Positions 1,721 to 54,482 of a stretch of DNA of 64,000 bases are shown piece by piece. Within the stretch, counting starts at the first letter, position 1. The number at the start of each line of letters is the position of its first letter. The stretch comes from an uncultured Lachnospiraceae bacterium (GTDB taxonomy: Bacteria; Bacillota; Clostridia; Lachnospirales; Lachnospiraceae): the NCBI GenBank assembly GCA_946612455.1, contig CAMOER010000008.1, positions 24,934 through 88,933 on the forward strand, read 5' to 3'. The notes below the pieces were generated by a model that searched no databases, had not been told where the DNA came from, and worked only from the letters and a program-made list of their open reading frames with translations. A program made the translations under genes and the position numbers.

Positions 1721-3300
1721 TCAGAATCAGCAATATCAAACTGCCGCCGGGGTATGGTGCGGCAGATATCGAAAAACAATTGAGACGGATCGGCGTAAAG
1801 GGAAACGAGTATCAGCTTTCGAGGCTTTCCCTGGATGCCCGGAAGAAGGAGGATATTCATTATCTGGCTTCCGTCGACTTAAAAGAGACGGGCGCCCTGC
1901 GGCCGCGCGGCGGCATCCAGCTGTCGGAAATTCATGAAAGACCGTATGCGCCCCCGGAACATGGTTCCGGTACGCTGACCGGACGGCCCGTGATCATCGG
2001 CGCCGGACCTGCCGGCATGTTCGCCGGCCTTCTGCTTGCACAGCAGGGATACGCCCCGGTGGTAATTGAACGCGGGGCTCCGGCAGATGAACGGACGGGA
2101 ATCGTCCGGGATTTCTGGAATGGAGGTCAGATCGATCCGGATCCGGATTCCAATGCCTGCTTCGGCGAAGGCGGCGCAGGGACCTTTTCCGACGGAAAGC
2201 TGACGACCGGCATCAAAGACAGGAACGGACGGATCCGGCAGATCCTGCAGTGGTTTTATGAGGCCGGAGCGGATGAAGACATCCTTTACTGGCACAAACC
2301 GCATCTGGGCTCCGACAAGCTGCCGGGGATCATGATGAATATCCGCAAAAGAACGATTGCTTCCGGCGGATCCTACCGGTTTCACACCAGAGCCGAAAGA
2401 CTGATCATAAAAGACGGCGCCGTGCGGGGCGTTCTTCTGAAGAACAGCGCCGGAGAAACGGAAGAAATGGAAACGGGCTGTGTAATCCTGGCCTGCGGTC
2501 ATTCGGCCAGGGACACGATCCGTATACTGTATTCCCAGGGCGTGCCTGCGGAAAGCAAGAATTTTGCTGTCGGCCTCCGGATCGAACATCCGGCGGAAAT
2601 GATCAACAGCGCACAGTACGGGAAGACACAGGATCAGCTTCCGACAGCGGATTATAAGTTGACCGGGCAGAGCGAGGACGGACACGGCGTCTATTCCTTC
2701 TGCATGTGCCCGGGCGGCTGTGTGGTCGATTCCTCCACCGAACCCGGCATGATCTGCGTGAACGGTATGAGCCTGAAGGCCCGGGACGGCAGAAATTCCA
2801 ATTCCGCAATCGTGGTCGGCGTCGGACCGGCGGATTTCGGAGAAGGCGTATTTGCCGGGATGGACATGCAGATCCGTCTGGAAAAAGCAGCCTTCAGAGC
2901 CGGCGGCGGGAAGATCCCGGTCCAGCTTCTGGGCGATTTCATAAACGGGAAGGAATCCAGAGCCTTCGGCGATGTACAGCCGGATATCCGGGGAGCCTTT
3001 GCTTTTGCAGATCTCCGGGAGGTCTTGACGGATTCTCTTTCTTCGTCGATAATATCCGTAATGCCGAATTTCGGCAGAAGGATAGACGGATTCGACCGGT
3101 ATGATGCGGTCCTGTCCGGTGTGGAGAGCAGAACGTCCTCCCCTGTCAGGATCAACAGAGATGAACATTTTGAGAGCAGTATAAAAGGACTTTTCCCCTG
3201 CGGAGAGGGCGCCGGCTATGCGGGCGGGATCACATCCGCCGCAGCCGACGGGATGAAGACAGCAGAGGAGATCATAGGAAGATATAAGCCATGGATATGA
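1717..3300 (+). CDS. FAD-dependent protein (COG2509-type NAD(P)/FAD oxidoreductase)
   Basis: The ATG at 1717 overlaps the upstream stop (ATGA). GAGPAG dinucleotide-binding motif and a C-terminal GEGAGYAGGI motif. The longer 1660 start in the ORF track lies inside the upstream gene. Confidence 0.7.
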   Translation: MIRISNIKLPPGYGAADIEKQLRRIGVKGNEYQLSRLSLDARKKEDIHYLASVDLKETGALRPRGGIQLSEIHERPYAPPEHGSGTLTGRPVIIGAGPAGMFAGLLLAQQGYAPVVIERGAPADERTGIVRDFWNGGQIDPDPDSNACFGEGGAGTFSDGKLTTGIKDRNGRIRQILQWFYEAGADEDILYWHKPHLGSDKLPGIMMNIRKRTIASGGSYRFHTRAERLIIKDGAVRGVLLKNSAGETEEMETGCVILACGHSARDTIRILYSQGVPAESKNFAVGLRIEHPAEMINSAQYGKTQDQLPTADYKLTGQSEDGHGVYSFCMCPGGCVVDSSTEPGMICVNGMSLKARDGRNSNSAIVVGVGPADFGEGVFAGMDMQIRLEKAAFRAGGGKIPVQLLGDFINGKESRAFGDVQPDIRGAFAFADLREVLTDSLSSSIISVMPNFGRRIDGFDRYDAVLSGVESRTSSPVRINRDEHFESSIKGLFPCGEGAGYAGGITSAAADGMKTAEEIIGRYKPWI

Positions 3301-25433: not shown

Positions 25434-26489
25434 TCAGTCCTTCTTTTCTCTGAGCTGGACTTTATTCCTGGCACTGCGGCGTCGTTCGTCATCAAGCGCT
25501 GCATAGTGCTTCCGCGTGGTATTGACATCCGAGTGCCCGAGCACATCCGCGACCAGATAGATGTCGCCGGTTTCACGGTACAGATTCGTACCGTAGGTGC
25601 TGCGAAGCTTATGCGGAGTAATATTCTTTAATGTCGTGACGGTCCTGGCATATTTTCTGACCAGATTCTCCACGCTGCGGACGCTCATCCTTTTGCGCTG
25701 CAGAGAAAGGAAAAATGCATCTTCATGTCCTTTTACGGGTATGATATGCTTCCGTTCATTCTCATAGACACGAAGCGCTTCCTCGACTTCATCGCCGAAA
25801 TAAACGATGACTTCCTTGCCGCCTTTCCGGTGAATATGGATGCCGCCGTTCTTGAAATCGACATCATCCAGATTGAGCCCGATACATTCCGAAACTCGGA
25901 TGCCGGTACCGAGCATGAGCGTCATCAGGGCCAGGTCCCGGATCTTTGTTTTTTCATGAAAAGCCTGCTGTTTTTCCGTCAGTTTTTCACCGGATTCGAC
26001 CTGGTCCAGAAGATCGGCGACTTCATCGATATCCAGACGGACGATTTCCTTTTCGTGCAGTTTCGGTAGCGAGATCAGGGCGGTCGGGTTGGTAAAGATC
26101 ATTTCCTTTTTAAAGAAATAATTATAGAAAGTCTTTAAGGAAGACAATTTCCGCATGATGCCGCGTTCCTGGTTGATCCTTTCCGTATCCTCATTGGAAT
26201 AATAACGAAGATGATCCATGTATTTTTCAAGATCAAGGGCTTTGATCTTATCCAGATCGGAAACGACGTACGAAGTGATTTCACGATCGGTAAAATCCGG
26301 ATGCGACTGATGCAGGTAATCAAAGAAGACATGCAGATCGTAGGCGTAGGCGATTTTCGTGCGGGAGGAAGTCGTCTGGTCGATGCCGCGCATGAAAGTC
26401 GCGACGAAGTCCGGCAGGCCGGCAATCAGCTCGCGGAGTTTGATGGTGTTGGCTTTATCAAGCTGTTCGTGGTATGAACGGGAAGGCAT
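25434..26489 (-). CDS. tyrosine site-specific recombinase, XerC/XerD-like
   Basis: 351 aa. SAM-like N-domain. Catalytic-domain motifs LGTGIRVSE (Arg), HKLRST (His-x-x-Arg), LGHSDVNTTRKHY (His ... Tyr). Confidence 0.85.
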   Translation of the reverse strand: MPSRSYHEQLDKANTIKLRELIAGLPDFVATFMRGIDQTTSSRTKIAYAYDLHVFFDYLHQSHPDFTDREITSYVVSDLDKIKALDLEKYMDHLRYYSNEDTERINQERGIMRKLSSLKTFYNYFFKKEMIFTNPTALISLPKLHEKEIVRLDIDEVADLLDQVESGEKLTEKQQAFHEKTKIRDLALMTLMLGTGIRVSECIGLNLDDVDFKNGGIHIHRKGGKEVIVYFGDEVEEALRVYENERKHIIPVKGHEDAFFLSLQRKRMSVRSVENLVRKYARTVTTLKNITPHKLRSTYGTNLYRETGDIYLVADVLGHSDVNTTRKHYAALDDERRRSARNKVQLREKKD

Positions 26490-26529: not shown

Positions 26530-26560
26530 TTATGTAGGATAATTAAATAATCTTACATAA
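26530..26560. promoter_or_regulatory. AT-rich palindrome just upstream of the recombinase start codon (operator-like)
   Basis: TTATGTAGGAT-AATTAAATA-ATCTTACATAA. The 11-nt arms match at 10/11. It lies 41-71 nt upstream of the recombinase ATG. Confidence 0.35.
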
Positions 26561-26585
26561 TCTGATGGAATGAATCCGGCGACAA

Positions 26586-26757
26586 CCGCTGCAGACAGTC
26601 ACCGGCTGAAACTGTGTGTGAAGAGCGACAGGATCGGGCGAAACCGCCGACTGGAAGCCAACACGCTTTATTCGTTGGCTGGAAGGAGTGCGTATGTTTC
26701 GTCCCGGATCCGAAGCAATCTGAGGACCCTGTTTCAGGCGGTGACTGTCTGCAGCGG
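26586..26757. repeat. 27-bp near-perfect inverted repeat pair flanking a 118-bp core (inverton-like, or the closing stem of a structured RNA)
   Basis: IRL 26586-26612 is CCGCTGCAGACAGTCACCGGCTGAAAC. IRR 26731-26757 is GTTTCAGGCGGTGACTGTCTGCAGCGG. They are complementary at 26/27. Outer complementary 8-mers TGAATCCG (26571) and CGGATTCA (26778) extend the pairing. Confidence 0.85.
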
Positions 26758-26933
26758 CGTCACTCGAATGCATAATTCGGATTCAGTAAAACCTAAGACT
26801 TTCAGCGGTGGATTCTTCAGGCTGCAGGCAGCCTTCAGAATGACAATTGATATCAAACGCTGATCACAGTTAAAATGTAATGAATCCGTTGAGGCGAACA
26901 GGTAAAACATGTAAGCCTTGAATAAAAATAATT

Positions 26934-27040
26934 GCACCCAAACTTTACGAATCAGTTGCGGGCGGACTCGAAAAGCAAGTCAATCAACCGAAGTATTATC
27001 AGCACCCAAACTTTAACGAATCAGTTGCGGGCGGACTCGA
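26934..27040 (+). repeat. two direct repeats (38 and 39 nt) separated by a 30-nt unique spacer
   Basis: GCACCCAAACTTT(A)ACGAATCAGTTGCGGGCGGACTCGA occurs at 26934-26971 and 27002-27040, identical except for a 1-nt indel. The spacer is AAAGCAAGTCAATCAACCGAAGTATTATCA. Confidence 0.85.
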
Positions 27041-27071
27041 CAAGTAATACTTCATTAAATCATTGATTTTT

Positions 27072-27123
27072 CGCCCCCAACTATTCGTTAAAGTTTTCTT
27101 TTGCGAATAGTTGGGTTTATTTG
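27072..27123 (+). terminator. inverted partial copy of the repeat forming a 12-bp (extendable to about 18-bp) hairpin plus T-tract
   Basis: CGCCCCCAACTATTCGTTAAAGTTT resembles the reverse complement of the repeat core. CCCAACTATTCG (27076-27087) pairs with CGAATAGTTGGG (27104-27115) and is followed by TTTATTT. Confidence 0.55.
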
Positions 27124-36501: not shown

Positions 36502-36527
36502 TGTATGATCTCCTTTGTTTTAAGATA

Positions 36528-36683
36528 AGACGTCGGAAGAGCCTCTGTTACAGTGTTGATTCTGCTTTTTGCTCTCTTCCTGTCGGCCCGTCCGCTGCAG
36601 AATTTTGCAGTTCTGACCGTGGCAGCATCCGCCGAATCTTTCGATGACTGCCATACCTCGTCAACCTTGCGGTCCCGGCGCTA
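36528..36683 (-). ncRNA. glmS ribozyme: glmS ribozyme (GlcN6P-activated self-cleaving riboswitch)
   Basis: The minus strand reads A/GCGCCGGGACCGCAAGGUUGACGAGGUAUGGCAGUCAUCGAAAGAUUCGGCGGAUGCUGCCACGG...GGCUCUUCC. It matches the conserved blocks of the B. subtilis ribozyme as I recall them (AGCGCC, GUUGACGAGG, AUCGAA, UUCGGCGGAUGC, 3' UCUUCC). The predicted cleavage site is 5' of the G at 36681. Confidence 0.88.
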
Positions 36684-36764
36684 ACCTGTTTCCTGTTTAC
36701 CTCCGTGAAGAAACGGGTTTTACATATATAGAGTCCGTATGTAATAACACAGACCTAGCTAATA

Positions 36765-54220: not shown

Positions 54221-54294
54221 TGGGACCGATGGGGCTCGAACCCATGACCTCTCGCGTGTGAGGCGAACGCTCATCCCAGCTGAGCTACGATCCC
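54221..54294 (-). tRNA. tRNA-Val (anticodon CAC)
   Basis: Hand-folded cloverleaf: acceptor GGGATCG/CGGTCCC, D arm GCTC..GAGC, anticodon stem TTCGC/GCGAG with loop CTCACAC, T arm ATGGG-TTCGAGC-CCCAT. CCA is not encoded. Confidence 0.9.
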
Positions 54295-54394: not shown

Positions 54395-54482
54395 CGGAGA
54401 GTGTGGGATTCGAACCCACGTGCCGGGAAACCGACAACCGCATTTCGAGTGCGGCTCGTTATGACCACTTCGATAACTCTCC
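54395..54482 (-). tRNA. tRNA-Ser (anticodon CGA), class II with a long variable arm
   Basis: Acceptor GGAGAGT/ACTCTCC, anticodon stem CCGCA/TGCGG with loop CTCGAAA, long variable arm, T arm GTGGG-TTCGAAT-CCCAC, discriminator G. Confidence 0.9.

Follow-up and report, generated by a model that had tools for sequence, protein, structure and literature searches.

Dispersed stem-loop repeats are in themselves well known in bacterial genomes (PMC2267715). Families such as ERIC, Correia/NEMIS, RUP and bcr1 consist of non-coding, intergenic elements of ~130–220 nt that occur in several copies and in either orientation, fold into long imperfect hairpins and are polymorphic for presence or absence between strains (PMC2267715), and their terminal inverted repeats are conserved because they derive from a parent insertion sequence. 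REP/REPIN sequences, which are mobilised by RAYT transposases, are likewise palindromes scattered through intergenic DNA that fold into hairpins when single-stranded. Here we describe a hairpin element at positions 26571–26785 of a 64-kb stretch of an uncultured Lachnospiraceae genome (contig CAMOER010000008.1; the whole stretch of 64,000 nt is called the window below). The element resembles these families in its size, non-coding intergenic nature, copies in either orientation, fold and presence/absence polymorphism, but it differs from them in which of its parts is kept. The conserved part of the family is its centre, a 126-nt core, and not the arms: the terminal 20–45 bp, which correspond to the conserved repeats of ERIC- and Correia-type elements, are private to each copy, and the REPIN plan of conserved arms around a variable spacer is reversed. 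No RAYT gene was seen, no search having been aimed at one. On balance, we favour the view that the element belongs to a previously undescribed family of non-coding hairpin repeats in rumen and gut Lachnospiraceae, akin to miniature inverted-repeat transposable elements (MITEs) or repetitive extragenic palindromes (REPs), the arms of which probably arise by template switching. A first-pass annotation of the window had read the locus either as a phase-variable inverton or as a long-stem RNA, and neither reading foresaw a dispersed repeat with a conserved centre.

A conserved core between private arms

A repeat search of the window returned inverted repeats at 26586–26617 and 26726–26757 (32 nt each, 29 of 32 positions or 91% complementary) around a spacer of 108 nt. 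The 27-bp near-identical repeats described at first pass lie within them and are confirmed, with 26 of 27 positions paired and a single G·G opposition (G26605 and G26738) 4 bp outside the core. The 19-mer CCGCTGCAGACAGTCACCG at the heart of the arm occurs twice in the 64-kb window, once on each strand, where dinucleotide shuffling predicts 0.01 matches and none of 100 shuffles reached two. The weaker outer pairing that had been reported is also present, TGAATCCG (26571–26578) with CGGATTCA (26778–26785), and pairing runs inward through the centre as well. The segment 26565–26792 folds as a single rod (−112.8 kcal/mol, z −7.5 as RNA; −62.6 kcal/mol, z −9.0 as DNA), and 76 of the 78 pairs of the window copy are Watson-Crick. 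We found no promoter-like or terminator-like site within 26609–26734, in agreement with the earlier remark that the core has no obvious one. The ribosome-binding site and 9-codon open reading frame (ORF) that had been pointed out in the core (ATG at 26693) are not conserved: the binding site carries a G to A change in L086 (comparison loci are cited by their working numbers), and the ATG reads ATA in L100 and L101. A coding mini-ORF was rejected on these grounds. The element is thus short and non-coding, with a core of 126 or ~210 nt and a total length, arms included, of 170–220 nt.

Further copies came to light as spurious ORFs in protein collections, which were searched with translations of the four open frames of the core. 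The 126-nt core recurs at five or more unrelated intergenic sites with 76–98% identity to the window core (Table 1), and the distinct loci that carry the element number six overall. Three copies lie on two contigs (L102, L103) of a single metagenome-assembled genome (MAG), GCA_002373155.1, and in L103 copies are nested and adjacent. Homology between the window and L097 begins and ends exactly at 26609 and 26734; among the copies the core ends read AAACnG...CnGTTT, and the outer arms are not conserved. Since homology ends at the core, there is no promoter or terminator common to the copies. The orientation of the core relative to the flanking genes is mixed among loci. A long form of ~210 nt contains an 85–86-nt branched hairpin (GTGCGATAAGCCTGTCAAGCGG...) at one fixed point of the core, after GTGCGTATGT. 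At the xer locus, where the window copy lies next to a gene for a tyrosine recombinase of the Xer family, the short form (window) and the long form (L098, L099) occur with identical arms, which points to exchange or gene conversion between copies.

From seven copies a covariance model (R1) was built; it recovers all seven and yields nothing more from the window or from 80 related xer loci, where blastn and nhmmer likewise gave no other copy. Rfam 15 returned no match at E up to 10 for the window locus and none at E up to 0.1 for five other copies; families that include 6S RNA, ribozymes and STAXI were rejected, with no match at gathering or permissive thresholds. Searches of Rfam and of the literature returned no published description of the family. 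By BLAST the element has no match in phage and plasmid collections, and scans of IMG/VR with arms and core gave chance-level matches or none. An exact-arm scan of metagenome contigs retrieved only the same locus (L086) plus three chance matches in unrelated high-GC DNA. No recombinase gene was called on the flanking DNA examined around the other copies. A retron msr-msd origin was rejected, as no reverse transcriptase lies beside any copy. The hammerhead motif CUGAGGA...GAAAC was also considered and rejected, because conservation is lacking (L101 and L103 have CGGAGCGA) and the GAAAC is paired.

Every copy is closed by its own near-perfect inverted repeat of 20–45 bp, the sequence of which is private to its locus (for example GCTCACCCAATGTCCACAG in L100, CTGTACCGGCACGCTGGTGCCGG in L101 and CCGTGTTCGGGAAG in L097). 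The arms contain one non-Watson-Crick position, at a distance of 1–4 bp from the core. Compared from locus to locus they are unrelated, with no pair at the reporting threshold of 22, whereas pairs from the same locus score 80–90; despite this they are complementary in every copy. Because the arms are private to each locus, the 27-bp repeats of the window are not recombinase recognition sites. Possible sources of the arm sequences were tried and rejected. Derivation from the copy's own core gives a score of 20 for the window arm (1% of shuffles as high) and scores not above shuffles for the arms of other copies; captured foreign "spacers" are not indicated, as six arms had no BLAST match in phage and plasmid collections; and the dif-like site near the Xer gene (see below) is unlike the arms.

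Comparison of the xer locus between strains and species shows that the element is dispensable there. Three contigs of the same species (L081–L083) are identical. In L086, which is 96–98% identical, the element is present with four substitutions, one of which falls in a pair and breaks it, while another weakens the supposed ribosome-binding site. The two closest other species (L001, L002) have ~80% nucleotide identity, a Xer protein that is 90–93% identical and synteny on both sides; the whole palindrome is missing from both, as is the AT-rich stretch to its left, and neither arm can be traced. The first pass had proposed that orthologous loci be compared for both orientations, and only one orientation was found, in seven of seven contigs (window, L081–L083, L086, L098 and L099; contigs, not raw reads). 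The element-less locus L001 comes from the same MAG, GCA_017431345.1, as L113, in which the purB/NUDIX copy is partly deleted.

The paired structure is supported by covariation. Across seven copies, 89% of cells form standard pairs, compared with 28–40% when partners are slid, and both sides have changed in 35 of 58 pairs, a number that none of 500 shuffles reached; of the 31 pairs of the core, 12 covary. Where GGGCGAAAC pairs with GTTTCGTCCC, for instance, G-C gives way to A-T in L097 and C-G to T-A in L100, and GGATC/GATCC becomes GCTC/GAGC in copy A of L103. These compensatory changes in the long-range GGGCGAAAC/GTTTCGTCCC pairing refute the local GGCG-AAAC-CGCC hairpin of the earlier annotation, which had also held that compensatory changes in the stem would indicate selection on RNA. 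Such changes are there, and the same signal is expected from homogenisation of the arms at the DNA level. By our count, the pair table of the core helices holds three G·U pairs against five A·C mismatches; G·U is thus not in excess of A·C, and neither strand is favoured.

The DNA around the copies shows signs of instability. Among contigs with an identical NadK protein, the nadK/recN spacer is either 28 nt long or 279 nt longer, and the 279-nt indel is bounded by GGAA (possibly a microhomology deletion). L097, from another species, carries a copy of the same sub-family in this spacer. The outer arms of that copy are 95% identical, but the whole unit is reversed, arms included, and each arm has a different stretch of 9 nt at its inner end, with complementarity kept. 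This comparison indicates that the short nadK/recN allele is probably a microhomology deletion and not a pre-insertion site. At purB/NUDIX, 103 nt of the core have been deleted between TTCG repeats in L113 (~945–1030; MAG GCA_017431345.1), which leaves both arms as a hairpin with a 28-nt loop. A true empty site was not found: the L113 allele is an internal deletion and the radical-SAM locus is filled in all contigs. The copies of L101, L114 and L115 lie between direct repeats of ~95 nt, the window copy adjoins 69-nt tandem units, and the assembly contigs L098 and L109 break at the core boundary.

Two further sequences adjoin the window copy. The AT-rich palindrome on its left side, TTATGTAGGAT-AATTAAAT-AATCTTACATAA, lies directly upstream of the leader of the Xer gene, overlaps promoter-like hexamers on the + strand, is perfect in L086 and is missing from L001 and L002; it may or may not be part of the insertion. 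The conserved motif of ~65 nt that abuts the right arm also occurs upstream of xer in the relatives without the palindrome (L001, L002). It forms a hairpin with tandem G·A (TTCTGAAGG...CCTGAAGAA), shows one T-A to C-G covariation and has no Rfam match. The motif is repeated on both sides of the radical-SAM copy (L101 3925–3975 and 4210–4272; L114, L115) as two or three direct copies of ~95 nt that end in the terminator-like CCGCAGAGnCTGCGGTTTTAC. At the purB/NUDIX locus, ~37-nt tandem repeats (ATGGACGGAAGAnGCACAGnGCGnTTTnTTAATG) adjoin the copy upstream of the NUDIX gene (L100 4190–4330, L112, L113), and their number varies between contigs.

Table 1. Features of the window and copies of the element elsewhere (window coordinates unless a locus number is given)
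Feature	Position	Strand	Remarks
Tyrosine recombinase, Xer family	25434–26489	−	351 aa; Pfam Phage_integrase, 5e-36
AT-rich palindrome	26530–26560		adjoins left side of element
Left arm, outer imperfect part	26571–26585		TGAATCCGGCGACAA; pairs with 26758–26785 across an extra small hairpin
Left arm, near-perfect part	26586–26608		CCGCTGCAGACAGTCACCGGCTG; private to the xer locus, not in other family copies
Conserved core, 126 nt	26609–26734	+	unit common to all copies; imperfect rod hairpin with apical loop ACACGCTTTATTC; halves AAACTGTGTG... and ...CCCTGTTT
Right arm, near-perfect part	26735–26757		CAGGCGGTGACTGTCTGCAGCGG; one G·G mismatch (26605/26738)
Right arm, outer part	26758–26785		extra 14-nt hairpin (CGAAT-GCATA-ATTCG) plus CGGATTCA
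Conserved motif, ~65 nt	26786–26853		abuts right arm
Inverted dif half-site units	26937–26978, 27006–27047		degenerate third copy 26875–26897
dif-like site	27076–27115		CCCAACTATTCGTTAAA-GTTTTC-TTTTGCGAATAGTTGGG; ~590 bp upstream of Xer gene, at window GC-skew maximum
glmS ribozyme	36525–36693	−	55.5 bits; ordinary
tRNA gene	54221–54294	−	ordinary
tRNA gene	54395–54482	−	ordinary
Copy, nadK/recN	L097		98.4% to window core (124/126 positions)
Copy, nadK/recN	L107, L110		90.6% to window core
Copy, purB/NUDIX	L100, L112		~87% to window core
Copy, radical-SAM/methyltransferase	L101, L102, L114, L115		79% to window core
L103 copy B, long form	L103		94–96% over aligned parts
L103 copy A, diverged	L103		76% over 102 nt
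85–86-nt module	L098 241–326		
85–86-nt module	L099 560–645	−	
85–86-nt module	L103 3955–4039	−	

The neighbouring Xer gene and dif-like site

The adjacent tyrosine recombinase gene reported at first pass was recovered (Table 1). Its top NCBIfam match is XerS (NF003462) at 189 bits, under the cutoff of 267, followed by XerC, XerA and XerD; the XerC model scores 177 bits against a cutoff of 335, and models of tyrosine invertases score far more weakly than the Xer models. The solved structures nearest to it by sequence are XerD, XerA and XerH. Across Lachnospiraceae the gene is present as one syntenic copy with ~57–93% identity (80 loci). Cumulative GC skew in the window reaches its maximum at 26–27 kb and the gene strand switches at the same place, as expected at a replication terminus. 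A dif-like consensus, ACTATTCGTTAAA-N6-TTTYGCGAATAGTT, is found in 35 of the 80 related loci, ~0.6–1 kb upstream of the single Xer gene in the loci inspected, with near-invariant arms and a variable 6-bp centre, which is the pattern of a dif site. The linkage of a dif-like site to a single Xer gene has been described for XerS/difSL (PMC2965235, PMC2731167). Taken together, the Xer-family match, the conservation, the terminus position and the linked dif-like site suggest that the recombinase is most likely a chromosome-dimer resolvase acting at the dif-like site and not an invertase, and the presence of the Xer gene beside this copy of the hairpin would be a coincidence.

The arrangement is like XerS/difSL in the similar size of the Xer protein (351 aa), in the best family match and in the linked dif-like site at the terminus. 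It differs in that the score falls below the XerS cutoff (189 vs 267 bits), in that the site is unlike difSL of L. lactis (ATCTTTCCGAAAAACTGTAATTTTCTTGACA) and in that extra inverted half-sites are present between the Xer gene and the site. These are inverted copies of the left half-site (AAACTTTAACGAATnAGTTG) in ~69-nt tandem units, also seen in L086 (2364–2540) and L099 and numbering three to four in sister strains. They may bind Xer in an accessory or regulatory capacity, or may have been left behind as scars by elements integrated at dif. The apical loop of the hairpin (26669–26676) contains TATTCGTT, which equals 8 nt of the dif left arm, with a chance expectation that we estimate at ~0.15. 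In L086 a group II intron fragment (~2620–3128), with a maturase-like C-terminal ORF and a sequence like domains V/VI, adjoins the dif-like site, and on the opposite side of the xer-dif module the flanking gene differs from that of the window. A Xer homologue of 566 aa (P0002; L089 3001–4701) has an N-terminal extension of ~215 aa and another gene neighbourhood. As a by-product, the analysis offers a candidate dif site and single-Xer arrangement for Lachnospiraceae. The remaining features listed for the window, a glmS ribozyme and two tRNA genes, are ordinary.

Origin of the arms and competing explanations

The point of interest is how the arms arise. In the account that we favour, the core would be the unit that spreads or is converted between loci, and the arms would be outward extensions of the palindrome, made by the hairpin itself: intrastrand template switching or fold-back priming in replication or repair would create them and perfect them at the DNA level. 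Three reports describe template switching as a process that homogenises and expands the arms of inverted repeats, inverts spacers and creates and maintains hairpins (PMC8794818, PMC8604942, PMC13100816), and fold-back priming at breaks leads to inverted duplications (PMC10622511). Such a process would be expected to give compensatory changes without a G·U bias, perfect Watson-Crick arms and the block replacement of both inner arms, along with tandem duplications and microhomology deletions nearby. It is also conceivable, though distinctly unlikely in our judgement, that the core alone is mobile and that its insertion yields a 20–45-bp inverted duplication of the flank, by a plausible route in which its paired 3′ end primes fold-back synthesis on flank already joined to its 5′ end. 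If true, inverted duplication of the flank would be an undescribed outcome of transposition or repair for bacterial elements, whose target duplications are direct repeats.

Several points weigh against the account that we favour. The case for template switching as the source of 20–45-bp arms is drawn from the literature. Neither a parent insertion sequence nor a transposase turned up, the plasmid and phage collections and IMG/VR giving no match, and there is no clear target-site duplication, in the window or elsewhere: GGAA bounds the nadK/recN indel, and repeats of ~95 nt flank the L114 copy. The sole "empty" site found, at nadK/recN, may be a secondary deletion, and neither arm is visible in the element-less L001 and L002, so that no arm could be traced to the local flank. 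Copy number per genome comes from fragments only, with one copy in the 64-kb window and none in the 80 xer loci. Moreover, the core strand that reads 5′-AAACTG (+ in the window) folds 2–22 kcal/mol better as RNA than its complement in ten of ten copies, although the cores are homologous and the ten comparisons are therefore not independent. Conservation also extends to the sequences of the loop and internal loops, and structured RNAs typically have optional hairpin modules of this sort, so that a role of one strand at the RNA level is conceivable.

The last of these points are shared with the strongest of the rival explanations, in which the copies are paralogous genes for a structured non-coding RNA, either small or cis-acting. 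The core would bind a protein or nucleic acid, and the closing helix, of free sequence, might for instance be a substrate of RNase III or clamp the structure. The strong covariation, 12 core pairs included, speaks for this explanation, as do the conserved apical loop and asymmetric internal loops, the 85-nt module at a fixed position in two loci, the better fold of the 5′-AAACTG strand and the promoter-like hexamers just upstream on the + strand of the window. It must, however, contend with homology that stops exactly at the core and leaves no common promoter or terminator, with mixed orientations that place the 5′-AAACTG strand antisense to read-through transcription at most loci, and with the pair statistics (G·U no commoner than A·C; 76 of 78 window pairs Watson-Crick). 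Copies that are 98% identical have wholly different stems of 20–45 bp, which drift and compensation cannot yield, and the element is dispensable in close relatives and without an Rfam match, while the fold energies count as less than ten observations. We regard this explanation as unlikely; covariation strongly supports the long folding stem of the first-pass annotation, though not a dedicated RNA gene. Still less probable is a mobile core that inserts specifically at the middle of long hairpins already in place, for example terminators or what is left of earlier copies, so that the arms would be the target. Palindrome-targeting insertion sequences and group IIC introns are precedents, and the exact stop of window/L097 homology at the core ends, the hairpin that persists in L113 after most of the core was lost and the nested and adjacent copies of L103 would all be accommodated. 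Element-less xer loci (L001, L002), however, bear no trace of either arm, the arms lack a terminator-type U-tract, and near-loopless, unique, perfect stems of at least 23 bp are not normal in intergenic DNA and would be unstable.

The remaining two explanations involve the Xer protein, and both are very improbable. In the phase-variable inverton proposed at first pass, the adjacent recombinase would flip 26613–26730 between the 27-bp repeats. The geometry is suitable (repeats of ~27 bp, a 118-bp centre, an adjoining tyrosine recombinase), and both orientations of the element do occur at nadK/recN, in two lineages. The nadK/recN difference, however, also swaps the outer arms and is accompanied by different flanks, and so is not an exchange between arms. 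The recombinase is a conserved, housekeeping-type Xer with a dif-like site of its own, it is 90–93% identical in genomes without the element, and 78 of the 80 related loci lack the element; the repeat sequence differs in every family member, and no recombinase gene was called on the flanking DNA examined at other copies. The centre is quasi-palindromic and has no promoter-like site, so that flipping it would change little, and the single orientation in all seven xer-locus contigs, a weak test, agrees. The inverton reading was thus not borne out. Ranked last is a Xer-related hairpin of single-stranded DNA, like the folded attP of CTX phage or another dif-integrating element, left beside dif. 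Its position in the spacer that separates the xer gene from the dif-like site and is full of dif half-site copies speaks for such an origin, as does the TATTCGTT that the apical loop and the dif left arm have in common. By our own estimate, however, an 8-nt match arises by chance about once in seven trials, the arms are unlike the dif-like site, and other copies lie at nadK/recN, purB/NUDIX and elsewhere with no Xer gene called (a dif-like site was not searched for there). Our order among these rivals is therefore structured RNA, hairpin-targeting core, inverton and Xer-related hairpin.

Comparison with known systems

Invertons such as E. coli fimS with FimB/E and the C. difficile cwpV and flagellar switches with RecV have inverted repeats around a segment of 100–300 bp and an adjoining tyrosine recombinase gene, as at this locus. 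Here, in contrast, members of the family do not share the repeat sequence, the gene encodes a general Xer, and the segment is a palindrome that lacks a promoter and is seen in one orientation at the locus. The case holds a caution for genome scanning, since what resembled a phase switch, an inverted-repeat pair beside a tyrosine recombinase, appears to be a repeat parked at a Xer/dif locus. Integron attC sites are imperfect palindromes that are conserved in structure and not in sequence, and as folded single strands they are the substrate of a tyrosine recombinase. Their outer R″/R′ boxes are kept and their centre is variable, the reverse of what we find. The element reads CTGAAAC / GTTTCAG where attC boxes would read RYYYAAC/GTTRRRY, there is no IntI gene and no cassette array, and integron integrase models give the recombinase 73 bits against a cutoff of 265.

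The hairpins attributed to template switching are alike in having Watson-Crick stems, wobble-free compensation, block replacement and outward growth of the arms (PMC8794818, PMC8604942, PMC13100816). The hairpins of those reports are at isolated loci, whereas here the process would have to act repeatedly on a dispersed element to give 20–45-bp arms at every copy. Should insertion or recurrent template switching prove to make the arms, the copies would be natural, replicated records of how a palindrome is extended, corrected and deleted in the chromosome of an anaerobe. What this family adds to the dispersed stem-loop repeats already described (PMC2267715) is the combination of a conserved centre with private arms.

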